Assembly: GCA_965202645.1 (NCBI GenBank)
Contig: OZ241840.1
Location: 735,523 to 799,522, forward strand
From: Bdellovibrionales bacterium
GTDB taxonomy: Bacteria > Bdellovibrionota > Bdellovibrionia > Bdellovibrionales > UBA1609
Direction of reading: 5' to 3'
Length of the DNA: 64,000 nt
The notes beneath the pieces are model-generated. The model did not search any database. It was given only the letters and a program-made list of their open reading frames with translations, and had not been told where the DNA came from. This document shows, piece by piece, positions 2,461 to 61,467 of this stretch. Numbering within the stretch: the first letter of the stretch is position 1; the number at the start of each line of letters is the position of its first letter. The position numbers and the translations under genes are program-made.

Positions 2461-3762
2461 TTAGTTTTTGCCTGTTTTTTCATTGGCGACACATGACAGG
2501 CCCTGAAGAATTTTTTTCATCCAAGGAGTCTGAATCCTCTCTTGATCGCCCATGTTATAAGCCAAGCGATAATTGCGCCTTAAGACACTCTTTAAAACAG
2601 AGCCTTTTTCCGCCCAAGAGGCGTCCTCTTTTATAATTTCCTTATAAGGGTATTTTTCGCTTTGTATCTGATTGAGAATATCGATTAAAAAAAACCTGTC
2701 CGGCCGCTCTAAAGGGGTTCTGAGCCTCTCCTCAATGTATGTTTCCAACTGCTCCATATATTTCGCAAAAGCCAGCAGTTTTTGCTCCGCGCTCATTCCG
2801 CCTTTTTTGCAAAAATTTGAGATGGCTGTAAAATATTTGTCCAAAGGCTTTTTTATCTCCTGAGAGCTTGTTGCCCTGTAAATTTGAGAAGATCCGTTTT
2901 TAGCCTTGTTTAGCAAGGGCGCTTTAGAGGGCGGAGCCTTAGGCTGAGCCTTGCCTTGAGACTGCGCTTTGCCTTGAGCCTTGCCTTGAAACTGCGCTTT
3001 GCCTTGTGCCTGAGCTTTGCCTTGAGCCTGAGCTTTGCCTTTGGACTGCGCTTTGCCTTGAGCTTTGCCTTGTGCCTGAGCTTTGCCTTTGGACTGCGCT
3101 TTGCCTTGAGCCTTGCCTTGAGCCTGAGCTTTGCCTTGTGCCTGAGCCTTGCCTTTGGACTGCGCTTTGCCTTGTGCCTGAGCTTTGCCTTTGGACTGCG
3201 CTTTGCCTTGTGCCTGAGCTTTGCCTTTGGACTGAGCTTTGCCTTTGGACTGCGCTTTGCCTTGTGCCTGAGCTTTGCCTTTGGACTGAGCCTTGCCTTG
3301 TGCCTGAGCTTTGCCTTTGGACTGAGCTTTGCCTTTGGACTGAGCTTTGCCTTTGGACTGAGCTTTGCCTTTGGACTGAGCCTTGCCTTGTGCCTGAGCT
3401 TTGCCTTTGGACTGAGCTTTGCCTTTGGACTGAGCCTTGCCTTGTGCCTTGCCTTGTGCCTGAGCCTTGCCTTGTGCTTTGCCTTGTGCCTTGCCTTGTG
3501 CCTGAGCCTTGCCTTGTGCTTTGCCTTGAGCCTTGCCTTGTGCCTGAGCCTTGCCTTTGGACTGCGCTTTAGGCTGGCTTTGAGCCTGCGCTTTAGACTT
3601 GCCTTGCGCTTTTGATGAGGGTTTAACCTCATTTTCAGCGCTGGCTTTTTTACTCTCAATTAAAGCGGGCGGCGCCGCTATAGCGCTTAAAACCGGAGCC
3701 TCTCCCCTCTCATAGCCCTTATTGGCCATCAAACCTAAAATCAGAAAAAAAAGAAGATTCAT
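2461..3762 (-). CDS. Secreted low-complexity repeat protein (KAQG/KAQS/KAQAQG array) with a unique C-terminal domain
   Basis: 433-aa ORF. Hydrophobic N-terminus (MNLLFFLILGLMA), then about 200 aa of K-A-Q-G/S repeats, then a non-repetitive ~130-aa C-terminus. The other long ORFs over 2910-3659 are repeat-driven shadows in other frames. Confidence 0.6.
   Translation of the reverse strand: MNLLFFLILGLMANKGYERGEAPVLSAIAAPPALIESKKASAENEVKPSSKAQGKSKAQAQSQPKAQSKGKAQAQGKAQGKAQGKAQAQGKAQGKAQGKAQAQGKAQGKAQSKGKAQSKGKAQAQGKAQSKGKAQSKGKAQSKGKAQSKGKAQAQGKAQSKGKAQAQGKAQSKGKAQSKGKAQAQGKAQSKGKAQAQGKAQSKGKAQAQGKAQAQGKAQGKAQSKGKAQAQGKAQGKAQSKGKAQAQGKAQAQGKAQFQGKAQGKAQSQGKAQPKAPPSKAPLLNKAKNGSSQIYRATSSQEIKKPLDKYFTAISNFCKKGGMSAEQKLLAFAKYMEQLETYIEERLRTPLERPDRFFLIDILNQIQSEKYPYKEIIKEDASWAEKGSVLKSVLRRNYRLAYNMGDQERIQTPWMKKILQGLSCVANEKTGKN
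2940..3590. repeat. In-frame short tandem repeats (units of 15/18/24 nt, gcctttggactgagctttgcc-type) encoding the KAQ array
   Basis: Direct reading shows dozens of near-identical units. All six frames stay open across it. Confidence 0.9.
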
Positions 3763-4112: not shown

Positions 4113-4340
4113 CTTGACAATAAGATCTTATTGATTTGTGAACAGGGCTATTCTAAGAAAGATGTCCATTTTTCGAGGACGATCCATCACTTGACAATAA
4201 GATCTTATTGATTTGTGAACAGGGTTATTTCAAGTGAACTGTCCATTTTTCGAGGACGATCCATCAGTCTTGACAATAAGATCCTATTGATTTATAAACA
4301 GGGCTATTCTAAGAAAGATGTCCATTTTTCCAGAGACAAT
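4113..4340. repeat. Three tandem copies of a 77-79 bp unit, each starting with TTGACA fused to a palindrome
   Basis: Unit: cttgacaataagatcttattgatttgtgaacagggctattctaagaaagatgtccatttttcgaggacgatccatca. Copies start at 4113, 4190 and 4269. Copies 1 and 2 contain the perfect 16-bp palindrome CAATAAGATCTTATTG. Copy 3 has it degenerate (aataagatcctatt). Confidence 0.9.
4270..4298 (+). promoter_or_regulatory. Candidate sigma70-type promoter (TTGACA-17 nt-TATAAA) inside repeat copy 3
   Basis: TTGACA at 4270-4275, a 17-nt spacer, TATAAA at 4293-4298. In copies 1 and 2 the equivalent -10 position reads TGTGAA. It faces the small ORF and the ABC-2 permease downstream. Confidence 0.45.
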
Positions 4341-5468: not shown

Positions 5469-6626
5469 TTAGGGGGGCAAAACGCTGGACTTGTTTTTGA
5501 TTCTAAAACGCCTAAAGATGTTTAGGCATCGCTTCGAAAAGGGGATTTTTGACTCTGACAAAGCCGGAAGCTCCGCCGGCTCCTCTAAGTTTTTTATGTC
5601 TGGCGGCTTTTGGCTTATCATTTGCTTGGCAGTTTCCATATTGTTAAGAGCGCCCTCATGATTAGGATTCAAAGCCAGAGCCTGCTTGAAATCTTCTAAG
5701 GCGGCATAATAATCTTGTTTCAACTCGAGATGCGCTTTCCCCCGGTAAAATAAAGCGTCAAAGCTCTGTGGATCCAGCTGAAGAGCTGTATTAAAATCTT
5801 TTAAAGCCTCCTCGTAGTCATTCAAGTAAATTCTAACAAAGCCTCTTACACTGTAAGCGTCATCAAAGTTTGGGTCTAATGAGAGAGCTTGAGTAAAATT
5901 TTTTTCCGCTAGCTCCCACATTTGATCTTGATACGCTTTTCTTTCAACTGCACTACTTTCTTCATTCTCTAATTGCTCTGCTTTTTTTGCTTCAAACAGC
6001 GCATCCATTCCCTTGTTATACCGCTTCAGCGCTTGACTGTGTCCAATATATGTTATTGGCAGAAAAAAGGGCAGGATTGTAAAATTTCTTGCTCCCAAGT
6101 TTTTTTCTTCCGCTACTTGTTGGCTATTTTCTATATGTTTACGGATAATTTCACTATATCTGAAACCTAAAGCAAGGGTCTCCTCATAGTCTTTTCTAGC
6201 TTTGTCGTAATCCCCTAGAATTGTCCAGACAATTCCTCGATTGTTGAAAGCCAATATATAGTTTGGATATAATTTAATAGCTGTATCAAAATCTTTTAAG
6301 GCCTCCTCATAGTTATTCAAGTAAATTCTAACAGCGCCTCTTGCATTGTAAGCGTCATCAAAGTTTGGTTCTAATGAGAGAGCTTGAGTAAATTTTTTTT
6401 CCGCTGCCTCCCATCTTTCAGCTTGAGCAAATTGTATTCCCTTAGAGTAATCACTCTGAGATTCACTTTCCGAGAATGATATTGACAAAAAAGTATAAAA
6501 TTGAAGGGCCGCCAAATCGTCAGGCAAAGATTTCAAATTCCTATCAGCCGGCTCTTCAGAGAAAACCGGGCAAACCACTGCAAAAGCAAAACAAATAAAA
6601 ATACGAAACAAATTTCCCAACATCAT
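5469..6626 (-). CDS. TPR-repeat protein with signal peptide
   Basis: 385 aa, signal-like N-terminus MMLGNLFRIFICFAFAVVCPVFS. There are two similar halves with TPR consensus (FTQALSL-PNFDDAY..RG.VRIYLN.YEEALKDF.TA..L.P). Confidence 0.8.
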   Translation of the reverse strand: MMLGNLFRIFICFAFAVVCPVFSEEPADRNLKSLPDDLAALQFYTFLSISFSESESQSDYSKGIQFAQAERWEAAEKKFTQALSLEPNFDDAYNARGAVRIYLNNYEEALKDFDTAIKLYPNYILAFNNRGIVWTILGDYDKARKDYEETLALGFRYSEIIRKHIENSQQVAEEKNLGARNFTILPFFLPITYIGHSQALKRYNKGMDALFEAKKAEQLENEESSAVERKAYQDQMWELAEKNFTQALSLDPNFDDAYSVRGFVRIYLNDYEEALKDFNTALQLDPQSFDALFYRGKAHLELKQDYYAALEDFKQALALNPNHEGALNNMETAKQMISQKPPDIKNLEEPAELPALSESKIPFSKRCLNIFRRFRIKNKSSVLPP

Positions 6627-6857
6627 GTCCTCATTTAAAAGCGCGCCCCAATTTTTTGGCTTGATTTAAAATTTCCAGCTGAGTTGTCCATTTTTTAGGG
6701 GCGATTTAAGCTCAAATAGTAGAGAAAAATCCGCGAATCCACAAGCAAAAAATTTGTCAGACTGGAGTGAGCTTGGGAAAAAAACCCATAAAATAAGCCT
6801 TTGCGGACTTTTAAATCTTAAATTATTGAGTTTCTTTTTGGCTCCCATCGGAAAATT

Positions 6858-7025
6858 TTACAATAATATTTGCTGTTTTGAAGTTTGAGACTCCTCTAAG
6901 GAGGATTTTAATTGAGGCTCCGCCGAGCTGTCCGGCGAAGCTTTATCAGCCGGCTCTTCAGCAAAAACCGGGCAAATCACTGCAAAAGCAAAACAAATAA
7001 AAATACGAAACAAATTTCCTAACAT
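6858..7025 (-). pseudogene. 55-codon ORF created by duplication of the 5' end (leader plus signal peptide) of the TPR gene
   Basis: Region 6945-7050 is about 90% identical to 6543-6650. It retains an ATG (7025) and encodes MLGNLFRIFICFAFAVICPVFAEEPADKASPDSSAEPQLKSSLEESQTSKQQILL-stop. It is below the ORF-track length cutoff. Confidence 0.4.
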
Positions 7026-7107
7026 TATGTCCTCCTTTAAGGGCGCGCCCTCAACATTTTTTTATTGATTTTGATTGTAACTTAATGATTTGATGTCCAG
7101 ATCAAAT

Positions 7108-7139
7108 AAAAAAAAGCCGGCGAGCTAAACTCACCGGCT
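7108..7139 (-). terminator. Rho-independent terminator downstream of 5S rRNA
   Basis: Minus strand reads agccggtgag-tttag-ctcgccggct followed by T8. Confidence 0.75.
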
Positions 7140-7149
7140 AAAATAAATG

Positions 7150-7260
7150 CTGGCGCCTTGCTGCTCTCCCATAGAAAACTCTATAGTACCATCGCCGTTT
7201 GCGGGCTTAACTTCTGTGTTCGGAACGGGAACAGGTGTGGCCCCGCAGCTATTGACACCA
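7150..7260 (-). rRNA. rrf: 5S ribosomal RNA
   Basis: The reverse complement reads tggtgtcaatagctgcggggccacacctgttcccgttccgaacacagaagttaagcccgcaaacggcgatggtactat...gcaaggcgcca. It has the conserved CCGAACACAGAAGTTAAGC core and the terminal helix I pairs (UGGUGUC / GGCGCCA). Confidence 0.9.
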
Positions 7261-7301
7261 ACAATCTTTTACATATCAATTTCAATCATTCCTGGCCTCA
7301 A

Positions 7302-10287
<2,986 letters not shown>

Positions 10288-10886: not shown

Positions 10887-11555
10887 TAATGCAGAGCAAA
10901 ATAAGATTATTGACCTAGGCCCTCCAGCCATACATTTAGCCATACACTTAGCTTATGGCGAGCTGTTTTGCCTTATACGGCAGTGTCCGCCCGCGGATGG
11001 CTTAGCCGGCCCCAAGGACAGATCTGCCAGAGCCTTAAAAAGCTCCAAAAAAGGCAAAGTGAGGCTGATATGGAAGGCTTAAAGTTTAATCGTGACAACA
11101 GGGATATGTTGGCCCGGCTTGTCTGGGACACCAAAAAAAGCTAATATGGAGGGCTTACAGTGAATTGTGACAACAGTTATTGCCATTTTAGAGAGTTTTG
11201 CGGCTTTAGGTTATTTTATCAAATGGCAGTCAAACCCCATCCAAAAAGATTAAGCTGTTTTTCGCCTGATTTTTCGCGATCTTTTCAAACACAAAATTCG
11301 TCAAACCCCATTTAAAAAGATCAGGCTGTTTTTCGTCATAATCTTGACTTGTTTGAGCGCCGATCCCCCCACCCTGTGTTATATAGGCCACAGCATAATC
11401 TTGCAATATGGGGCGTCTCAGCGGCTTTAAGATCCCCGCCCAAACCGCTAAAAGATCAACACAGCATAATCTTCGTCTCAGTGGCTTATTTTTTGCCGGC
11501 TGGCCAGTTTTTAAAAAAAGCTTGATTTTTTTTGCTAGCGGGATAAGCTTAAAGT

Positions 11556-12005
11556 ATGGATTGGCCTGCTATATTAAGCCTTTTTGATCAAGCTGTTCCT
11601 GTGGGAATAGTGGCTTTGCTTATTTGGCAGGCCATTATAAGCCGGGACATTAAACATATAAACGAAAAATTGGGCAATCACATAACAGACACAAACAAAA
11701 AGATTGATAAGCTGGATGCCAAGATTGAAAAACACACTGAAAAGCTGGATGCCAAGATTGAACAAAACACAGCCAAGCTGGATGCCAAGATTGAAAAGCT
11801 GGATGCCAAGATTGAACAAAACACAGCCAAGCTGGATGCCAAGATTGAACAAAACACAGCCAAGCTTGAGGCTGGACAAGCCCGCTTTGACAGTGAGCTT
11901 CAAGCCATAAAAGCTGGACAAGCCCGCTTTGACAGTGAGCTTCAAGCTATAAAAGCTGGACAAGTTAAGATAGAAAGCAAGCTTGACCGTCTCTTAATAA
12001 AATAA
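11556..12005 (+). CDS. Small N-terminal-TM coiled-coil repeat protein (paralog 1 of 3)
   Basis: 149 aa. One hydrophobic segment (VPVGIVALLIWQAII), then the NHITDTNKKIDKL motif, then 11-aa units (KLDAKIEQNTA, about 6 copies), then 16-aa units (AGQARFDSELQAIK, about 2.5 copies). It shares motifs with 31866-32054 and 38524-38814. Confidence 0.65.
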   Translation: MDWPAILSLFDQAVPVGIVALLIWQAIISRDIKHINEKLGNHITDTNKKIDKLDAKIEKHTEKLDAKIEQNTAKLDAKIEKLDAKIEQNTAKLDAKIEQNTAKLEAGQARFDSELQAIKAGQARFDSELQAIKAGQVKIESKLDRLLIK

Positions 12006-12707: not shown

Positions 12708-13385
12708 CTATTTCATCTCAATCAAACACTTACTGTCTAACTCGTATAGAGCGTCACTCTGCCCATTCTCTCCAGCAAGCTTATACCACTCACAAGCCGC
12801 CTCCAAGTTTCGCTCCACACCCCAGCCATACGCATAAAGCCTGCCTAACCGGTATTGAGCGCCTGCATCCCCTTGCTCTCCAGCAAGAGCATACCACTGA
12901 AAAGCCGCAGGAAAGCTTTGCTCCACACCAAAGCCAAGCTCATAAAACCAACCTAACTGGAATTGAGCGCTCAAATCCCCTTGCGCCGCCGCAAGCTTAA
13001 GCCACTTAAAAGCCGCAGGAAAGCTTTGCTCCAAGCCCTGGCCAAACGCATAAAGCCCGCCTAACCGGTATTGAGCTTCCGCATGCCCTTGATCTGCCGC
13101 GCGCCTATACAACTGAAAAGCCGCAGGAAAGCTTCGCTCCATGCCCTGGCCATACTCATAACACCAGCCTAACCAGACTTGAGCGTCCGCATTCCCATTC
13201 TTTGCCGCGTGCTTATACCACTTAAAAGCCGCCTCTGTCGTCATCGGGTCAAGTTGAGGTAAACGATCTTTAGAGGCTAGAGCGCTTTGACAAGACAGGA
13301 CAGCCACAACGGCCAAGACTCTGATAATGCCGATTTTTCTTTCTTTGGTTAAGGCGGAGAAAAGCCTTATAATAATTTTTTGCAT
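12708..13385 (-). CDS. Sel1-repeat (SLR) protein, secreted
   Basis: Repeated A..WY..AA.QG...AQ..LG..Y..G.GVE.. units (5-6 copies) and a signal-like LAVVAVLSCQSALA. The preferred start is the ATG at 13385, preceded by AGGAGG. The track ORF extends to 13424. Confidence 0.85.
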   Translation of the reverse strand: MQKIIIRLFSALTKERKIGIIRVLAVVAVLSCQSALASKDRLPQLDPMTTEAAFKWYKHAAKNGNADAQVWLGWCYEYGQGMERSFPAAFQLYRRAADQGHAEAQYRLGGLYAFGQGLEQSFPAAFKWLKLAAAQGDLSAQFQLGWFYELGFGVEQSFPAAFQWYALAGEQGDAGAQYRLGRLYAYGWGVERNLEAACEWYKLAGENGQSDALYELDSKCLIEMK

Positions 13386-13497: not shown

Positions 13498-13514
13498 CCC
13501 CCCCCCCCCCCCCC
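13498..13514. repeat. Homopolymer C17 (G17 on the coding strand of the Sel1 gene)
   Basis: Counted directly as 3+10+4 C. On the minus strand it reads cTTGATTtttc-G17-TAAAAT. Confidence 0.9.
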
Positions 13515-13560
13515 GAAAAATCAAGCTTTTTTTCTGACTTTTGCAAAAAAATTTATCTAA

Positions 13561-15521
13561 ATCCCGACTTTGACACTTAATATGTTTGAGGAAATTTAAA
13601 AGTCAATAAAGACAAGGGTTTCAGGAAATATTGCCTAAAAAACAGGCAACATTGTAGTGTAATACTTTAAAAAAAAGGGGTTTTTAATGCGGTTTTTTCT
13701 CCTCAGAAGATATTTGCAGTAATTTCGGAGGTATTTTGAGCTTAATCGCCTGAAAGACAGCCGCTGCATTTCCCTCTATCTCTGTCCTCATCCACAATAT
13801 GCGATCCCGCATTTTCACTGGAACAGCCCGAACCTCCAACAAATCCCTCATAGCCTCTTTAGCGCTCAAAGGGCGAGCCTTCACCAGCCCCTTCTTTATA
13901 GCGGCGCTCTTTAGCTTTAAACCCTTAATCCTAAAAACTTTGGTTAAATAAGCCTCGCATAAATAAGCTATAAAACACATCAGCAAATGCCCCACTATGC
14001 GCTTGTCTGTCCAATGAAACACAGGACGCGCTTTTAATGTTCCCTTCAGCTCGCCAAAAGCGCTCTCCACCTTCCATAGATCCTTATAATGGCTGATCAA
14101 ATGCCCAGCGCTCATATTCTTAACATTCGTAATCACTCCAAAAAAGCCATCTCTTTTAGCCTCTTCCTCTATCGCCTTTTTATTTAAAACCGCAGGGCCT
14201 TTTTGGGATAAGCGCACATACTTTTTATAAGCCTCATTCGTTATAAAGCCCTTGACTGAAGATCCGCTGGAGCTTAACTTCTTCTCAATTTTTAACAAAA
14301 GCTCCTCGCGGGCCTTCCGATCTCTCTCCGCCCTTTTAGCCGACCAAGCAATAATAAGCCTCTTTCCCTCATACTCTGTCTCATACACAGACAAGCCCTC
14401 TTGAACTCTTTTAAACAGCCTTTTATTATAAAAATCCTTATGCCGGCTCTTTATAACTCCTAACTTCATGCCCACAATAAACTCCCCTTTTCCCCGATCC
14501 AAACTCTCTAAATTCCTCTTGGAGAAAAGGCCTCTGTCCCCAACAAAAATAAAGCGCCCCACATTAAACTTTTTCCTCAGCTTTCTCTCTATATCAAACA
14601 CTGTCTTTCCCTCAAAAGTGTTCCCCGGATACACCTCAAAACCCAATGGCATTCCCTCCCTATTTACTAAAAGCCCTAAAACCACTTGAACTAAATCGCC
14701 TCTCCTCTCCTTGCTATATCCAAACTTCCTCAACCGCCCTAAGTCTGCCCTCTGACTCTCAAATCGCAATGTTGTCAAATCATACAGCACAACATCCACC
14801 TCCTGATTAAACAAATCCCGATCATGCCAATATAAAGACTTTTCTATCTCCTCCTTGTTTAGAGCTAAATAATCTAAAACCCTGTATATCTGATGAAGCT
14901 TTATATCCGGAGTGAAAAGGCCCGGATAAAAATTATTCTGCCAATGCTCATAAACTTTAAGCTTTGAGCCCGGATTAGCAAAACGGGAGGCCACAAGGGC
15001 AAACAGAACTTTCCGAACATCAAAAACAGCTTTCCCGCTTTTTGGAAGCTTCTCCAGAGCTTGATTTATCCCTAATGTCTCAAAAAGCTTTTCCAGTATA
15101 AGGAGAGGGCCTAAAGTGAAGGTTTTTTCAATGGAGAGTTTTTTGGCCAGCTCAGAGGCTGTCAAAAAACTGCTATGGCGGCGGACAGCTTCCACCAGGT
15201 TTTCCAGCCTTCCCTCTCCCGCTCGTCCGAGAGGCAGGAGAGTTCGTTGGCGGACTTTGCCTCCTTCACGATAGGATTCCACTAAGTGAAAATAGTCTGT
15301 TCCCTGGGGAGTTTTAATCTTGCGGATGAACATAATTCATTCATTACTTGATCCCTCGAACAAAGTCAATATGTTTTATTGAATAAAAAACAAAAAACTA
15401 GACCTTTTCCCTAAAAAATAATTCACTACATTTTTAACTCAAATCCAAAAAAAATCACAAAAAATCCTATATTTCCGGGGTTTTTATTTTTGCCACGCCA
15501 ATTAAGTGTCAAAGTCGGGAT
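13561..15521 (-). mobile_element. IS1634-family (IS4 superfamily) insertion sequence, apparently intact
   Basis: Terminal inverted repeats: atcccgactttgacacttaat (13561-13581) and attaagtgtcaaagtcgggat (15501-15521). They enclose a single 549-aa DDE transposase ORF. Confidence 0.85.
13684..15333 (-). CDS. IS1634-family DDE transposase
   Basis: 549 aa. N-terminus MFIRKIKTPQGTDYFHLVESYREGGKVRQRTL and the blocks VVLYDLTTLRFES, FIFVGDRGLFS and YKDLWKVESAFGELK are typical of IS1634/IS4-type transposases. Confidence 0.85.
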   Translation of the reverse strand: MFIRKIKTPQGTDYFHLVESYREGGKVRQRTLLPLGRAGEGRLENLVEAVRRHSSFLTASELAKKLSIEKTFTLGPLLILEKLFETLGINQALEKLPKSGKAVFDVRKVLFALVASRFANPGSKLKVYEHWQNNFYPGLFTPDIKLHQIYRVLDYLALNKEEIEKSLYWHDRDLFNQEVDVVLYDLTTLRFESQRADLGRLRKFGYSKERRGDLVQVVLGLLVNREGMPLGFEVYPGNTFEGKTVFDIERKLRKKFNVGRFIFVGDRGLFSKRNLESLDRGKGEFIVGMKLGVIKSRHKDFYNKRLFKRVQEGLSVYETEYEGKRLIIAWSAKRAERDRKAREELLLKIEKKLSSSGSSVKGFITNEAYKKYVRLSQKGPAVLNKKAIEEEAKRDGFFGVITNVKNMSAGHLISHYKDLWKVESAFGELKGTLKARPVFHWTDKRIVGHLLMCFIAYLCEAYLTKVFRIKGLKLKSAAIKKGLVKARPLSAKEAMRDLLEVRAVPVKMRDRILWMRTEIEGNAAAVFQAIKLKIPPKLLQISSEEKKPH

Positions 15522-16331
15522 ATAATTTTGCTGTAAATGATTTGGATCTGCGCTGGATGAATCCAAATTTTTTGGATTGGCAAATAAAAACTTATGCTCA
15601 GGGAATTTGAGAAAAATATCAACAGCGATAATATTAAACTCATCTTTTCTGGGGGTTGCCTGTGTCCTCTCGCTTAATCCGCCAGAGCCAGAAACAAAAT
15701 GTGTCTCTAATACTTGGATTTTTTTTGCTATATACGCCAATCTGCCGTTAATCATTTGATTGATTTCTTTTCTTGAATATTTTTTTAAATTAGAAATACA
15801 TTTTGATTTTTGAGTTTCTTTTTCCGGCGGCTTATATTTTATAATTTCCTCATAATCGTATAGAGTGTCTTTGTATTCATTTAAAAATTTAGGAAGATTA
15901 TCTTGTATCCATTTATCAATTTGCGGCTCTATCTCTTTGTTTTGTTTTATCCATTTAATTTTTTTATGCTCAAAAAAAAGAAAAGCTTTTAAGCGATCAT
16001 AATTATAAAGTTTATGCCATTTTTCGGAATTAGATTTAAGCCCTTCCGACTCTAAGACAAACCAATATCCGTCTTTATTTTGAAAATAAAAATCACCATA
16101 ATGGCTGGGATGTTTTTTCCCCTCCCACTTTTCTTTGATTCTTTTTACAGGGTAATTCAGGGATTCTAAGCGCTTTTTTATCAATAGCTCTGTCACTGAG
16201 CCGCTGACATAACCTTGCGCGCCAGGGCTTAATTTTAGAGCTTCCAGAAAAACATCCAATGTTGTTTTAAAAACTTTAGAGACAAAATATTCCAATTTTT
16301 CAAAAATTGTTTTCTTGGTTTTTTCCGGCAT
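15426..16331 (-). CDS. Hypothetical protein whose 3' end is replaced by IS sequence
   Basis: The ORF crosses the IS boundary at 15521. The last 31 aa (IPTLTLNWRGKNKNPGNIGFFVIFFGFELKM) are encoded by the IS terminus. Only 270 codons are native. Function unrecognised (a nuclease-like fold was considered but cannot be supported). Confidence 0.5.
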   Translation of the reverse strand: MPEKTKKTIFEKLEYFVSKVFKTTLDVFLEALKLSPGAQGYVSGSVTELLIKKRLESLNYPVKRIKEKWEGKKHPSHYGDFYFQNKDGYWFVLESEGLKSNSEKWHKLYNYDRLKAFLFFEHKKIKWIKQNKEIEPQIDKWIQDNLPKFLNEYKDTLYDYEEIIKYKPPEKETQKSKCISNLKKYSRKEINQMINGRLAYIAKKIQVLETHFVSGSGGLSERTQATPRKDEFNIIAVDIFLKFPEHKFLFANPKNLDSSSADPNHLQQNYIPTLTLNWRGKNKNPGNIGFFVIFFGFELKM

Positions 16332-16864: not shown

Positions 16865-18322
16865 ATGGGCAATCAAACTAAATTAAAACAAGCGTTGGAA
16901 AATTTCATTGATATAACAGGGGCCAGAAAAAAGCGGCCGGCTAGGGCTAAAAAAGCTCAAATTGCCCCTTTGCGCAAGCGCCGGCAGGCTAAACCGCTAA
17001 ACACATTGGAGCAAAGTCCAGCCACCTCCTCAGCTCAGCTCCAAAAAGAAGACTCTATGCCAGCCTTAGAGAGCAAAACAGCCCAGAGCCAAAAAGAAGA
17101 CTCTATGCCGGCTTTACAGAAAAAAACAGCCCAACTCCAAAAAGAAGACTCCATGCCGGCTTTACAGAAAAAAACAGCCCAGAGCCAAAAAGAAGACTCC
17201 ATGCCGGCTTTACAGAAAAAAACAGCCCAACTCCAAAAAGAGGACTCTATGCCGGCTTTACAGAAAAAAACAGCCCAACTCCAAAAAGAGGACTCCATGC
17301 CGGCTTTACAGAAAAAAACAGCCCAGAGCCAAAAAGGGGACTCTATGCCGGCTTTACAGAAAAAAACAGCCCAAAGCCAAAAAGAAGACTCCATGCCGGC
17401 TTTACAGAAAAAAACAGCCCAGAGCCAAAAAGAAGACTCCATGCCGGCTTTACAGAAAAAAACAGCCCAACTCCAAAAAGAGGACTCTATGCCGGCTTTA
17501 GAGAAAAAAACAGCCCAACGGCAAAAACCAAAGGAGGATAAAAAAGACTCAACACTCATTACAGAGCTTTCCGCAAAAAATATAAAGCCAGATCCGAATA
17601 AAAAAACACAGACAAGAGCCGCCTATCAAGGGATGGACACGCTAAAAGCGGTGGGCGCCAGAAAAATTCAAATGATGACTCAGCCGGGAATAAACCCGGC
17701 CCCTTCCTCTCCTTTGCAAATGCATCTTGTTCAGTCGGAAAGCCTGAAAATCGCTCAAGAAAAAATCACTGAATTAGAAGAGGAGCTAAACAGCCTGCGC
17801 CAAAAAAATGAATCTTTGCTTTCCGCCTCTGATGTTTTAAAAAGCCAAAATGATCAAATGACATCCAAGCTGGAGGATTTAAAATATGCCCTTAAAGATG
17901 AAAAAAACAATTTTAAAAATGAGAAAGAGGTTCTTCTCTCCACTTTAGAGGAGGCTCAAGCGCAAATCCAACAGCTGAAAAGCAAAAAGCAGGAGCTGGA
18001 AAATCGCCTGTCCAGTGACTTTCACGGCATCCGCGACAGAGAAAGCTCCTTGGAAAGCCGAATGGAGATTTTGAAAATGGAAAACTCCGTGCTTCAAAGG
18101 GAAAAAGACAAAAAAATTATTGAGCTAAAGAGGCAAATTCAAAAAACAAAAAACAGCTTGGATGGAGCTTATCAAAAAAATAAGGATTTGCAAATTTTAA
18201 ACAACAAGCTTCAGGAAGGCTCCCGAAGGGCTGTCTTCGCCCTAAGAGCCACAATTTACAATCTGGAGGGCGCTAAAGCTGTTGAGGAAACCATTGCGAC
18301 AGAAATCAGCAAGAAAAAATAA
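16865..18322 (+). CDS. Repeat plus coiled-coil protein (10 copies of a 16-aa unit QKEDSMPALQKKTAQ[LS])
   Basis: 485 aa. 48-bp in-frame repeats run over about 17040-17520, followed by a C-terminal ~230 aa of heptad-rich coiled coil. GGGGGAATTATG provides an SD. Confidence 0.65.
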   Translation: MGNQTKLKQALENFIDITGARKKRPARAKKAQIAPLRKRRQAKPLNTLEQSPATSSAQLQKEDSMPALESKTAQSQKEDSMPALQKKTAQLQKEDSMPALQKKTAQSQKEDSMPALQKKTAQLQKEDSMPALQKKTAQLQKEDSMPALQKKTAQSQKGDSMPALQKKTAQSQKEDSMPALQKKTAQSQKEDSMPALQKKTAQLQKEDSMPALEKKTAQRQKPKEDKKDSTLITELSAKNIKPDPNKKTQTRAAYQGMDTLKAVGARKIQMMTQPGINPAPSSPLQMHLVQSESLKIAQEKITELEEELNSLRQKNESLLSASDVLKSQNDQMTSKLEDLKYALKDEKNNFKNEKEVLLSTLEEAQAQIQQLKSKKQELENRLSSDFHGIRDRESSLESRMEILKMENSVLQREKDKKIIELKRQIQKTKNSLDGAYQKNKDLQILNNKLQEGSRRAVFALRATIYNLEGAKAVEETIATEISKKK

Positions 18323-28782: not shown

Positions 28783-29692
28783 TTAAATATCCCAAGGCCC
28801 CAGAGCTTTCCAATATTTTGGCAAACGCTTTTTTGTTGTAAGAGCTTTCACTATAGGCAAAAGAAATAATTTTAAAGATTCTATAACATCAGAAAAAGAG
28901 GGGGAATCCTTCTGATCCAATGTTTTTATAAAAACATTCCACTCCTTTTCTTTCTTTTTTATAAATTCCTGATTAAAGGCCGTAATTTCTTGTTTTAAAG
29001 AGGCGCCTCTATTTTTAAAGGTCAGATCAATAGCTTTTGATAACCTATGGCCTTCAAAGTTGTATTCTCGGGATAATATCCATAAGTCATAAAAGTCTTT
29101 CATCCGACTATTCCAGTCTCCTAACTTCATCAGAGCTTCAAATTTTTCCGCAACAATACTTTCCAAACTATAACACCAAAGCTTAGGGGCGGGAAAATCC
29201 AAGATACAAGGAAAAGCCATTTTCTTTAGGTTCAGGAAAAATGACATCATGAAAGCTTATATCAATTTGCATATTGATTTTTGCTGAATCCAAAGTCCCA
29301 TAAAATAACACCCGTATACCCTTATAAGAGGCATCTCTTTTAATATCCTCAAGGCAAATGCTTTGTGAATCAAAGACAAGACCATCTTCTTCTGCTTTGA
29401 TAGATAGAACATCTTTTATTTGTTTTATTATTTCAGATGCTTCATCATTTCTTTTTTGTGATATATCAATATCCATAGTGGGACGAAACTTCTCTGCTTT
29501 TCTAACTTGCAGAGCTAAAGCTCCCTTAAGAATAAAAGAGTCCACATAATCAGATTGAGATAAACGATACAAAAACCTCTCTATAGCATAATACTGCAAA
29601 AGCTCATTAAAAGGCCTTTTGTCTTTTCTGGATATATTTAAAAGCCTCTGCCTCACAGAGGCCGGAACATTTGTAATTTGTTTTTTTGTCAT
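28783..29692 (-). pseudogene. AbiEii/DUF1814 nucleotidyltransferase toxin, split by a frameshift
   Basis: Two overlapping ORFs (29183-29692 and 28783-29250) together give a full-length AbiEii-like protein (N-part ...RQRLLNISRK...ERFLYRLSQS...ILKGALAL...RPTMDIDI; C-part ...SIVAEKFEALM...). The frame changes within 29183-29250. Confidence 0.7.
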
Positions 29693-30309
29693 ATTATGCT
29701 TTCTATATAAGGTTTCATAACATTTTTAATATGGCATACTTTTGCATATTTGATCAATTTTGAAGGATTAAATGTTTTTCTTTCTCTATAAAAAGCCAAG
29801 GCTTCCAAAACAACGCTCATGCCAATTTTATTTCTAAATTTAAAACAATCCACTACTGTTTTTTCAGGGTTGTATATTTTAACAGGGATTTTATCAAAAA
29901 TATATGTGTCAGCGCCTGAAGAAAAACTTTGACTAGAAAATTGATGAATAGAAACAGGAGGATAATCTATTCTGGGTCTGTGAGCGCCTCGTTTTACAGC
30001 TACCCAAATTTTATGAGGAATCTGTGTTGTTAAATTATGAAAAGCCAAAGCGGAAATTAAACAAATAATCCCATTTGGAGCTCTTAAGGCCACTGTCACA
30101 AAATCAGGATGAGAAACCTTATTTTGTTTTAATTTATATAAACCATAAGAAATTTGCTCTAAAACCCCTTTATCCCTCAAGCTATATAAAGTTCTTGGAT
30201 GAATATGTTTTTTTATGGCTTCATTGGCCTTTATAATGCCCTTATTGGCTTTTATAATATGAACGGCATTTTTTTCTTTAGAGGCATTCATGGATAAAAA
30301 CCTTTTCAT
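29689..30309 (-). CDS. AbiEi-family antitoxin / transcriptional regulator (type IV TA)
   Basis: 206 aa. It sits immediately upstream of AbiEii with a 4-nt overlap. The N-terminal wHTH-like segment (IHPRTLYSLRDKGVLEQISYGLYKL) and C-terminal domain pattern fit AbiEi_4. Confidence 0.7.
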   Translation of the reverse strand: MKRFLSMNASKEKNAVHIIKANKGIIKANEAIKKHIHPRTLYSLRDKGVLEQISYGLYKLKQNKVSHPDFVTVALRAPNGIICLISALAFHNLTTQIPHKIWVAVKRGAHRPRIDYPPVSIHQFSSQSFSSGADTYIFDKIPVKIYNPEKTVVDCFKFRNKIGMSVVLEALAFYRERKTFNPSKLIKYAKVCHIKNVMKPYIESII

Positions 30310-38116: not shown

Positions 38117-38435
38117 TTAAAATAGGGAAAAAGTTAATATATACCCGATAATACATTAAAAAATAGGGAAAAAGTTAATATATGCCTGCCAATACATTAA
38201 AAAATATGCGAAAAGTTAATATATGCTTGCCAATACATTAAAAAATAGGGAAAAAGTTAATATATGCTTGCCAATACATTAAAAAATAGGGAAAAAGTTA
38301 ATATATGCTTGCCAATACATTAAAAAATATGGAAAAAGTTAATATATGCTTGCCAATACATTAAAAAATATGGAAAAAGTTAATATATGCCTGCCAATAC
38401 ATTAAAAAATATGGAAAAAGTTAATATATGCCCGC
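38117..38435. repeat. Eight tandem copies of a 41-bp unit
   Basis: Unit: aatacattaaaaaatagggaaaaagttaatatatgcttgcc. The marker agttaa recurs at 38132, 38173, 38214, 38255, 38296, 38337, 38378 and 38419 (period exactly 41). There are no spacers. Confidence 0.95.
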
Positions 38436-38523: not shown

Positions 38524-38814
38524 ATGGAAAATTTAGATCCAAATACTATTATTGCTATTTGCGCTTTTATGGGTGTTCAATTTGGTATAATATATTTTCT
38601 GCTTACCTTTACCAAAGGCTCAATAGAAAAAGATATAGCTCAGCTTGAAACTAAGCTTGAAAAGAGAATTGACAGCTTAGAGGCTGGCCAAGCCAAACTT
38701 GAGGCTGGCCAAGCCAAACTTGAGGCTGGCCAAGCCAAACTTGCCGCCGATCTTGATAAAATGTTTGGACTTATAAAAGAGATTGTTAAGAATCCATCAA
38801 ATAAGCGGCCATAA
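38524..38814 (+). CDS. Small N-terminal-TM coiled-coil repeat protein (paralog 3 of 3)
   Basis: 96 aa. TM segment IIAICAFMGVQFGIIYFLL, then a coiled coil with three copies of LEAGQAK (21-bp repeats). It shares the EAGQA(K/R) motif with paralog 1. Confidence 0.6.
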   Translation: MENLDPNTIIAICAFMGVQFGIIYFLLTFTKGSIEKDIAQLETKLEKRIDSLEAGQAKLEAGQAKLEAGQAKLAADLDKMFGLIKEIVKNPSNKRP

Positions 38815-39135: not shown

Positions 39136-40393
39136 TCAGTTGGTCAGAAGATTTGCGGCGCCAACCTTGCATAGCTTATCCACCCAGTTGCCGCTTATAT
39201 CGCCCACATACTCATATAAGTTGGTTGAGGCGCCCCAATAATGAACCCCACTGGTTGTTCCAGATTTATTTACTCCCTCTTCTATAATGTCATTGATATA
39301 GTCTTTAAAACTCTTACGGTTCAGCCAATCCTCCGCGCTGTCATCATCTATGCCATCTCCAATTTTGCAATAAACTGTAAAACAGGACACGCTGGTTTCA
39401 TCGGTCTCACAATCGCTGTTCTTTTCGTTAATATAGTCTTGAAACCACTCAACCACCTCCTCATTGCCGCTTGCCACAGCCACTTCCATCAACTTGTCAC
39501 TGCCATCCACTTTTGTGATAAAAGGCTCATGATGAGCATTGCCGCTAAAGCTATTCAGCCGCTTCAAAAGAGTATCAAAAGCGTCATAATCATCATCCGC
39601 ATTTTTAAAAACTTTCGCAATATTCGGATTTTCTATTAGCCAAATCAGAAATTCCCTAGCCTTGCTAGTGCTGTATCTCCCAATGAATTTATCTAAAGGG
39701 GCAATGCTAATATTGACATAGACAGCAAAATCATTATGAGCCACATTATCCAGGTTATCATTATTCGGAGCCTTTAAACGAGAATGCAGATCCTCCAGCC
39801 GGTCAATCTGACTGATGGAAAGCTCCTCACAATCCTCCCTGTCCGATCGGCGGGCGTAAATCTCCAGACACTGCCTTTTGCAATCATGATCCATGTCCTC
39901 ATCCTTACAGGCCCCTTCTTGAACTGACGGAGGCGCGGGAGTCGGGGCCGGAGCGGGAGTCGGAACTGGAGTGGGAGTCGGAGCTGGAGTCGGAGTCGGA
40001 GCTGGAGTCGGAGTGGAAGATCTGGAGCTATAGCGGCGGTTAGATCGGCGATAGGAGCGGCGGCGATAGGTGTTGTTTGAGGCTGTCTGTTTATTTGCTT
40101 TTACATAGCTGTCCAAAGCCCGGACAGCCGCTCTGTCACAATCGCTAACCGATCGAAAGCCGGCGGGGAGACGCCCTGTGACGCAAAATTGAAACTCAAT
40201 ATACTCATGCGCACGATCCCAAAAGCAGTTTGATCCGCCGCGCCGACAATCGCTCTCTATCTCCTCAAAAATTTGATTTAAGCCAGCCACAGAGGGGACA
40301 TTGCTATAGCCGGTGGAGGGTAAATTTACCCCCCCCCCCCCCGATAAAGCAGGAGGTTAGGAAAACAAAAAGAATAATTATTATAGAACGCAT
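39136..40393 (-). CDS. Lipoprotein with a PT-rich linker; signal peptide out of frame with the mature part because of a G14 tract
   Basis: ATG at 40393 (SD GTGAGG upstream) encodes MRSIIIILFVFLTSCFI (lipobox LTSC), then G14. In this sequence that frame stops 8 codons after the tract. The 384-aa body (track ORF 39136-40290, GTG start, no SD) is open in the -1 frame back through the tract. The body contains (P/A/V)TP repeats. Confidence 0.7.
40329..40342. repeat. Homopolymer C14 (G14 on the coding strand)
   Basis: Counted directly (2+10+2). Confidence 0.9.
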
Positions 40394-40583
40394 GAGACCT
40401 CACTTATCTTTTCGGCTATTTATTTCAGCGAGTTAAATAATAGGGTTAAAGCAAGACCTATGTTCTAGGGGAAGAATAGCTTGCTCTCCCCATAGATAGC
40501 TTGCTCTCTCCATAGATAGCTTGCTCTCCCCAAAATTAAGCGCTCACCTTACCCCAACAACCAAAAAAAGCAGGGAGAGGCCA

Positions 40584-44339: not shown

Positions 44340-44488
44340 AAGGGCCTCCTTATAAATTTTTTAAAATTCTCCTATATGCGCCTATAAGATCTGTGTTCAT
44401 ATACTAAACTTCTAAATTTTTCAAAAATTTTTTTAAAAAATCCGCTATTTTGTAATTTTTTCACATGCTGTTCTTTGCCAGCGCTCCA

Positions 44489-44910
44489 AAAAGCTCATCC
44501 GGAGCTTTACATCGGCGGCCCCTTGCTTATCCGTTGATGATAAGCGCCGGCGAAACAGAAAACTCTCAAAAATTCATCGGATGCCCTCCCCATCATCCGT
44601 TGATGATAAGCGCTGGCGGAACAGAAAACTCTCAAAAACTCATCAAATGCCCTCCCCATCATCCGTTGATGATAAGCGCCGGCGAAACAGAAAACTCTCA
44701 AAAACTCATCGGATGCCCTCCCCATCATCCGTTGATGATAAGCGCTGGCGGAACAGAAAACTCTCAAAAACTCATCAGATGCCCTCCCCATCATCCGTTG
44801 ATGATAAGCGCCGGCGAAACAGAAAACTCTCAAAAACTCATCGGATGCCCCACATCATCCGTTGATGATAAGCGCCGGCGGAACAGAAAACTCTCAAAAA
44901 CTCATCGGAT
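44489..44910. repeat. About 6 tandem copies of a 66-bp unit (alternating A/B variants, giving a 132-bp higher-order period) upstream of topA
   Basis: The marker atgccc recurs at 44581, 44647, 44713, 44779 and 44845. Each unit contains the hairpin atcatc-cgtt-gatgat. All frames on both strands stay open, producing ORFs 44465-44971, 44581-44865 and 44507-44833. Confidence 0.9.
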
Positions 44911-45067
44911 TAAAATGCCCGTTAAGACAGACTATGAAAAAATCAGAATCCCTATATTTATACTGAACTAAAGTCTTAAACGGCGAACTCAAAATAAGCC
45001 AGAATTTTAGCCTAAATTCAAACTTAATGAATAAAGAGCTTGAATCCTAAAACGGGAATAGCTAATA

Positions 45068-55081: not shown

Positions 55082-55320
55082 GGCCTCAAACTAGCGAAAG
55101 CCTTTAAAATTCTGAATTTGCGCGAAAACCGGCTGGCCTCAAACTGGCGAAAGCCTTTAAAACTCTGAATTTGAGCGAAAACCGACTGGCCTCAAACTGG
55201 CGAAAGCCTTTAAAATTCTGAATTGGCACGAAAACCGGCTGGCCTTAAACTGGCGAAAGCCTTTAAAACTCTGAATTTGAGCGAAAACCGACTGGCCTCA
55301 AACTGGCATAAGCCTTTCAC
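55082..55320. repeat. 4.5 tandem copies of a 53-bp unit between convergent metK and the HU/IHF gene
   Basis: The marker ggcct(c/t) recurs at 55082, 55135, 55188, 55241 and 55294. The last copy overlaps the stop codon of 55317-55616. Confidence 0.9.
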
Positions 55321-61159: not shown

Positions 61160-61285
61160 TTGAATAAATAGTCAGGAGCTGGATAACCTGATCAGAGGCT
61201 GGATAAGTGGAGCAGGGGCTGAATAAATGGAGCAGGGGCTGAATAAATGGAGCAGGGACTGGATGAGTGAAGCAGAAGCTGGACA
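61160..61285. repeat. About 6 copies of a 20-bp tandem repeat (tgaataaatggagcaggggc)
   Basis: The marker agcagg recurs at 61211, 61231 and 61251, with degenerate flanking copies. Confidence 0.8.
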
Positions 61286-61467
61286 AAACACATTATATTT
61301 TATATAACAAAATTTATATTGATTGGATTTGCGCGGCTCTTAGTTTTTGTGATAAACGAATTTTTCAAATCTAACCGATATAAAAATATATTTGAGCGAT
61401 TATTTGCGGCAGGCTCATCGGAGGAACAATTTTTTGATGTCAGCCTATGTTTAACAGCTTATAAAAA

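Follow-up and report, generated by a model that had tools for sequence, protein, structure and literature searches.

A lipoprotein gene broken by a 14-G tract in a Bdellovibrionales genome: a candidate slipped-strand ON/OFF switch

Genes and features at the locus

The window analysed here, by which we mean the whole 64-kb stretch of DNA, carries on its minus strand a short open reading frame that begins in the manner of a lipoprotein, a run of 14 G residues, and a much longer open frame, displaced relative to the first, that would encode the body of such a protein. The features of the locus, in the order in which the minus strand is read, are the following.

40594-40576, minus strand: terminator-like site of the upstream gene (terminator scan)
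40476-40532, minus strand: 20-bp tandem repeat, GGGGAGAGCAAGCTATCTAT, present 2.8 times between the terminator-like hairpin of the upstream gene and the start of the lipoprotein; the motif is unique in the window
40398-40401, minus strand: Shine-Dalgarno (SD)-like GAGG, 4 nt 5' of the ATG, within gtGAGGtctcATG
40349-40393, minus strand: start codon and predicted lipoprotein signal peptide, from M1 to the lipobox Cys15, MRSIIIILFVFLTSC (translation, pattern match, Cys alignment)
40329-40342, minus strand: G14 homopolymer (C14 on the plus strand), the proposed slippage site, coding for four to five Gly (sequence, frame table)
40326-40328, minus strand: TAA abutting the tract, read as a stop when the number of G is divisible by 3 (rebuilds with n = 12, 15 and 18)
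40304-40306, minus strand: TAG stop of the ATG frame, which closes the 29-aa OFF product (ORF list, translation)
39136-40328, minus strand: lipoprotein body in the neighbouring frame, open through the tract, with its stop at 39136-39138 (ORF list, translation, alignment)
39938-40014, minus strand: coding region of a PT-rich linker, an imperfect 6/18-bp repeat, TPTPAPTPTPAPTPTPVPTPAPAPTPAPP (periods 6 and 18)
39139-39912, minus strand: conserved Cys-rich, acidic, all-alpha C-terminal domain, common to the whole family (tblastn, family alignment A1, AlphaFold2)

Read directly, the upstream part of the gene on the minus strand is aagtGAGGtctcATG CGT ... TCC TGC TTT ATC, followed by 14 G and then by TAAATTT; the start region is gtGAGGtctcATG CGT TCT ... 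ACC TCC TGC TTT ATC, and the sequence 3' of the G14 is TAAATTTACC. The frame of the ATG at 40393 (ORF 40304-40393, 29 aa) translates as MRSIIIILFVFLTSCFIGGGGGKFTLHRL and then a stop. The body frame is open from 5 codons 5' of the tract, where it reads S, stop, PPALSGGGGVNLPSTGYSNVPSVAGLNQ, down to its own stop at 39136, and the first start listed for it is a GTG at 40290, which would give a product of 384 aa. The original prediction had placed 14 G at 40342-40329 behind an ATG-led signal peptide, MRSIIIILFVFLTSC-FI, and had described a 384-codon body that is open back through the tract and has that GTG as its first listed start; the former is confirmed by sequence and translation, and the latter by translation and the ORF list. 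Two of its details are to be adjusted. The tract does adjoin the FI codons and does not lie directly after the lipobox, since two codons (Phe and Ile) separate the Cys from it; and a stop does follow the tract in the OFF frame, 7 sense codons past the last Gly codon rather than the 8 codons that had been counted. A role for the tract as a promoter of the signal-less GTG ORF was considered and rejected: no SD precedes the GTG at 40290, and the promoter scan gave no match near the tract on that strand.

The gene was rebuilt in silico with 9-20 G, and the length of the product was computed for each rebuild. Within this range a product of 417-420 aa is obtained only at n = 10, 13, 16 and 19 G, the product being 20-31 aa otherwise: 14 G gives the 29-aa product, and with 12, 15 or 18 G translation ends at the TAA right after the tract. 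Loss of one G or gain of two puts the signal peptide and the body in one frame, and in this full-length form the junction of signal peptide, tract and body reads ...FIGGGGVNLPSTGYSNVPSVAGLNQ.... The frame arithmetic by which 13 or 16 G had been predicted to fuse the signal peptide to the body is right, and the same fusion arises with 10 and 19 G.

Family evidence for a single lipoprotein gene

Lipoprotein signal peptides were recognised with a PROSITE-PS51257-style lipobox pattern, which asks for a positively charged n-region, a hydrophobic h-region and [LVI][ASTVI][GAS]C within the first ~35 residues; MRSIIIILFVFLTSC fits it. With the 13-G reconstruction as the query, a search of a protein collection gave 19 true relatives, 13 of which were taken into an alignment (A1). 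These 13 are intact proteins of ~300-350 aa, lipoproteins of this family being ~320 aa long; the column of the lipobox Cys is invariant among them and is aligned with Cys15 of the reconstruction, and the residues that follow the Cys are usually F-G-P-P or F-G-P-G. Of the 19 relatives, 13 fit the lipobox pattern, as do 93 out of 164 family proteins that were checked, and a profile search of 1.84 billion representatives returned 426 family cluster representatives at E <= 1e-10. The proposal that a lipoprotein signal peptide starts at the SD-led ATG is upheld both by the pattern match and by the alignment of Cys15 with the invariant Cys of the homologues. Because the homologues are intact, their lipobox Cys is invariant, and members of the family fit the lipobox pattern, the signal peptide behind the ATG and the body of 384 codons are, to judge from sequence, two halves of one ancestral lipoprotein gene.

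The body reaches the end of A1, keeps every invariant Cys, Trp and Tyr, has no internal stop, and is 73% identical to the paralogue P0001 over 259 aa (tblastn). It is without any other defect; the gene is not decayed, and the tract is its sole lesion. Relative to its relatives the protein has ~60 extra residues after the Gly run, together with the PT-rich linker, and this N-terminal segment is lineage-specific. AlphaFold2, run on an alignment of 18 sequences, gave a model that is confident for the all-alpha C-terminal domain, with a pLDDT of ~90 over residues 125-340, and poor for the N-terminal segment and the linker. No Pfam match was obtained for the lipoprotein, the family being without a Pfam model; NCBIfam gave only low-complexity matches to Pro-rich regions, and a Foldseek search of the C-terminal domain against the PDB gave no match at E <= 0.001. 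From the features of the product we infer an exported, disulfide-rich, acidic lipoprotein on a flexible stalk.

At the site of the tract the DNA of homologues reads TGT TTT GGC CCA GGG, TGT TTT GGG CCA GGA or TGT TTT GGG GGC, and the tract looks like an expansion of this pre-existing Gly-rich site. No G/C run of at least 8 was found in ~58 kb of eight related loci, and poly-Gly follows the Cys in none of the other 93 lipobox-bearing family proteins. Since the other family members examined have no tract, the tract is recent and comes with no comparative record of its upkeep, a point against a switch.

All six of the family's genome matches are to metagenome-assembled genomes (MAGs) of Bdellovibrionales, Bdellovibrionaceae or Oligoflexia, several of them with tandem paralogues; locus L002 has a tandem pair of lipoprotein-family genes at 5809-8028, and locus L005 gave four tblastn matches. 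In the protein collection there is no close orthologue of the window lipoprotein, the best match being 64% identical, and the genome scan likewise yielded no close relative. A profile scan of metagenome contigs found no relatives of A1, a search of metagenome contigs for the flanks of the tract with a variable gap between them gave no match, and exact-product look-ups of one window protein, of P0001 and of P0006 found none on record.

Length of the tract and soundness of the assembly

The G+C content of the window is 41.8%. Its 64 kb contain 498 C runs of length 3, 145 of length 4, 28 of length 5 and 6 of length 6, and G runs behave alike; the counts drop ~4-fold per base added, which gives ~1e-4 expected runs of at least 14 in 64 kb versus 2 observed. 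These two are, on the plus strand, the C14 at 40329-40342 and a C17 at 13498-13514, and the longest other run of G or C is 6, a length reached by 11 runs. The G14 tract is not a chance feature of the window; it is a gross length outlier. In both tracts the G's lie on the minus strand, which is also the strand that carries the 23S and 5S rRNA genes, and the GC skew of the plus strand is negative.

The window also contains 41 A/T runs of 8 or 9, and large ORFs (978, 898 and 860 aa) run through it unbroken, so homopolymer errors are not widespread in the assembly. That two-colour Illumina chemistry had produced an internal poly-G artefact was judged unlikely, the flanks of the tract being contiguous parts of one gene with a Gly-rich joint. 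The original prediction had invoked the second long G tract, at 13498-13514, as making a single artefact less likely, and on this point it stands: the second tract is real and a lone artefact is less likely, the link of that tract to a gene being less clear than had been implied. The idea that a single segment was duplicated and gave both tracts was rejected, as they have in common only TC-Gn-TAAA(A)TT and a stray GCAATGT.

Paralogues and genome setting

Protein P0183 is 100% identical to the window ORF at 15426-16331, its IS-derived tail included. The contig recorded for P0001 and P0004 is as long (2,207,895 bp) as the one that has P0183, and these two are therefore probably intact paralogues of the lipoprotein, without the tract, in the same 2.2 Mb genome. 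The window lipoprotein is itself missing from the protein collection, which has other proteins of the same genome, and this absence suggests that the source annotation leaves the lipoprotein gene without a protein call. Phase-variable surface families usually show such a pattern, with one member that has a tract and paralogues that are stable, and it fits a decaying redundant copy equally well.

The window is unusually rich in intergenic minisatellites with units of 20-77 bp in 2-8 copies (for example at 38119-38432, 38680-38743, 40476-40532, 4113-4330, 55082-55317 and 61173-61287), and a 41-bp x 7.7 array begins or lies ~0.7 kb beyond the stop of the lipoprotein gene, on its downstream side. 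Three ORFs, at 2461-3762 (minus strand), 16865-18322 (plus strand) and 44465-44971 (plus strand), consist largely of in-frame tandem repeats, with units of 18 bp x ~30, 48 bp x 10 and 66 bp x 5.8, respectively, and are candidates for size-variable proteins. The 23S and 5S rRNA genes are at 7148-10286 (minus strand), with no 16S gene beside them and no rRNA or tRNA match in the 1.2 kb that precede the 23S gene. The rRNA operon may thus be unlinked, an arrangement seen in many genomes that are small or host-associated. At 28783-30309 (minus strand) there is an AbiEi/AbiEii toxin-antitoxin pair whose AbiEii toxin is divided between two ORFs that overlap (Pfam positions 1-123 and 117-237), and because the frameshift is not at a long homopolymer the split AbiEii is probably a true pseudogene.

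A second G tract upstream of a Sel1-repeat gene

The second tract lies outside any coding region.

13498-13514, minus strand: G17, intergenic, 113 nt upstream of the SD-led ATG at 13385 of a Sel1-repeat gene (run scan; Sel1 E = 2.8e-38, Pfam)

The Sel1-repeat protein has, by eye, a hydrophobic N-terminus ending in VLSC/SALA, and it does not fit the strict lipobox pattern. The order TTGATT, 4 nt, G17, TAAAAT makes a spacer of 21 nt, and the consensus promoter scan made no call here. Between the G17 and the Sel1 ATG there is a hairpin followed by U6 (~13455-13430, minus strand), which lies inside a longer stem (z = -3.25); the hairpin and U6 could be a structured leader, an attenuator, or a terminator left from an older arrangement.

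The G17 is preceded by an 18-mer, AAAAAAAGCTTGATTTTT, that is present in exact inverted copies at 11513-11530 (plus strand) and 13516-13533 (minus strand). Between the copies lie 2 kb in which an ORF of coiled-coil repeats (11556-12005) and the Sel1 gene (12708-13385) converge, and a G tract follows the second copy only; the tract-free copy stands upstream of ORF 11556 with a similar spacing, to TAAAGT.

An IS1634-family element (13558-15524, transposase 13684-15333, terminal inverted repeats imperfect) ends 45 bp from the G17 and truncates a nuclease-like gene (ORF 15426-16331, minus strand) that is ~70-90% identical in MAGs labelled Desulfococcaceae, Omnitrophota, Nitrospirota, Bacteroidetes and an archaeon. 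The window lacks the final ~52 codons of the nuclease-like gene, and the insertion of the IS therefore came with a deletion or rearrangement. That the G17 might be the former 3' end of ORF 16331-15426 was considered and rejected, since the ~52 further residues of the homologues are not encoded beyond the IS.

Discussion

We consider it probable that the locus is a single lipoprotein gene broken only by its G tract and that the tract acts as a slipped-strand translational ON/OFF switch, the deposited sequence then representing the OFF state or the modal read length. The structural marks of a contingency locus are present: the tract has 14 G versus the ~8 needed, it lies inside an ORF, and both of its sides belong to one otherwise intact gene. 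The contingency-locus architecture that had been proposed for this site is borne out in that there is one gene, the lesion is only at the tract, the frame is restorable, and the length of the tract is an outlier.

The comparison with homologues shows the signal peptide and the body to be the two parts of a single gene from a conserved lipoprotein family. A ribosome that translates the 14-G form exits the tract in the wrong frame and stops after 29 codons, the 13-G and 16-G forms (and those with 10 or 19 G) yield a prolipoprotein of 417-420 aa, and the forms with 12 or 15 G stop at the TAA. During replication the tract would gain and lose single G's at a high rate, as G/C tracts of at least 8 do in Neisseria, Campylobacter, Treponema and Bifidobacterium (on such tracts in general, PMC2831843), and a clonal population would always be a mixture of ON cells (13/16 G) and OFF cells (14/15 G) from which selection picks. 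In ON cells Sec would export the protein, Lgt would add the lipid to its Cys15, and LspA would cleave it. Its destination is probably the outer membrane, because the residue at +2 is Phe and not Asp (the E. coli rule), and there the Gly run and the PT-rich linker may hold the Cys-rich alpha-helical domain off the membrane.

Simple-repeat phase variation is a textbook matter for host-adapted pathogens; in the open-access literature we found no report of repeat-mediated phase variation in Bdellovibrio-like bacteria. Among known systems, the Neisseria meningitidis hpuA gene, which encodes the lipoprotein of the HpuAB haemoglobin receptor, is phase-variable via a poly-G tract in its ORF (PMC3786947). 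The likeness to our candidate lies in the poly-G inside a lipoprotein ORF, in ON/OFF control by frameshift, and in the setting of a set of surface proteins; the difference is that hpuA belongs to an unrelated protein family and phylum, whereas the tract in the window sits 2 codons after the lipobox Cys and is a candidate switch. According to PMC524362, which cites Zhang and Wise 1997, the surface adhesin gene vaa of Mycoplasma hominis has a 5' poly-A tract with 8 A in the ON state and 7 or 9 A in the OFF states. It resembles our candidate locus in having, close to the 5' end of a gene for a surface protein, a homopolymer with a localised reversible frameshift, and two OFF frames that both end quickly, and it differs in that its tract is of A and much shorter, its host is a wall-less Mollicute, and the proteins are unrelated.

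Intragenic G-tract contingency genes are also found in Campylobacter jejuni and Bifidobacterium breve (PMC6321876, PMC9187656), in the latter among pilus genes (PMC9187656), and there too G/C tracts far above the expectation from composition occur in genes for surface structures, several per genome; those phasomes rest on many genomes and on read-level variation, whereas here we have two tracts in 64 kb. For the G17 alone, a tentative comparison is with promoter poly-G/C switches such as those of N. meningitidis porA and opc and of the Treponema pallidum tpr genes (PMC7864442): the G17 lies upstream of the Sel1-repeat gene and between TTGATT and TAAAAT hexamers, but the spacing is 21 nt versus 16-18 and a hairpin with U6 stands between the tract and the gene.

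The switch has to be weighed against other accounts of the same sequence. The frameshift might exist only in the consensus, the true tract being 13 or 16 G in essentially all cells and the gene intact. Long G runs are a classic site of indel errors in long-read and in Illumina chemistry, 14 G is within the range of lengths where every sequencing platform miscounts, a one-base change restores the frame, and the body is perfectly intact, all of which speaks for a homopolymer miscount; the study of G tracts in B. breve used an error-excluding sequencing strategy for exactly such indel errors (PMC9187656). We nevertheless regard a miscount as unlikely, given that the rest of the window, with its 41 A/T runs of 8-9 and its long intact ORFs, has no signs of homopolymer indels. 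Moreover, a tract of 13-16 G would remain after the correction and would still be hypermutable, so that a miscount alters the state of the locus (to ON) and not its nature.

A plain pseudogene, in which a redundant paralogue underwent G-tract expansion and frameshift and is on its way to decay with no selection on switching, seems to us more improbable still. It is the reading with which the two intact paralogues seemingly in the same genome agree, as do the presence in that genome of other broken genes (the split AbiEii and the IS-truncated gene) and of IS activity, the apparent lack of an annotated protein here, and the fact that the tract was seen in no relative examined; yet the lesion is single and exactly at a reversible site, 384 codons are open with all invariant family residues kept, the signal peptide, the SD-like motif and the start codon are intact, and the inactivation would not be stable because a tract that long would revert often.

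Rescue at the level of decoding, by which DNA fixed at 14 G would give a constitutive low level of full-length protein through RNA polymerase slippage or ribosomal frameshifting, is in our view highly improbable. A 14-base run is long enough in principle, and transcriptional slippage on homopolymers is established for bacterial A/T runs of 9 or more, but it is on A/T runs that slippage is known in bacteria, and the realignment of G:C hybrids is poor. The site also lacks the marks of programmed slippage or frameshifting: the run is of G, it comes with neither a slippery heptamer nor a stimulatory structure downstream, and the relatives examined are without the tract. Such rescue is, besides, compatible with slippage of the DNA and could only add leakiness to it.

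For the slipped-strand switch, which we prefer, a wider form can be proposed, in which the 2.2 Mb genome, to all appearance that of an uncultured, repeat-rich Bdellovibrionota-like bacterium, carries a genome-wide set of unusually long tracts (14-17 G) that randomly switches surface lipoproteins and Sel1-repeat proteins and forms the first simple-repeat contingency system in the phylum; we offer this as a tentative and rather doubtful extension. If such a set exists, it would suggest that selection on the cells is frequency-dependent, with a host or prey as its source, as it is for mucosal pathogens, and the flanks TC-Gn-TAAA(A)TTT would hint at a common origin or a common reading of the tracts. 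A gene that is seemingly uncalled by the annotation may be working and switchable, and homopolymer-aware analysis of reads may reveal more of them. If the switch at the lipoprotein gene is real, the lipoprotein family, with its 426 cluster representatives, would be a surface determinant under fluctuating selection, and the locus would offer an initial clue to the interaction partners of these uncultured cells.
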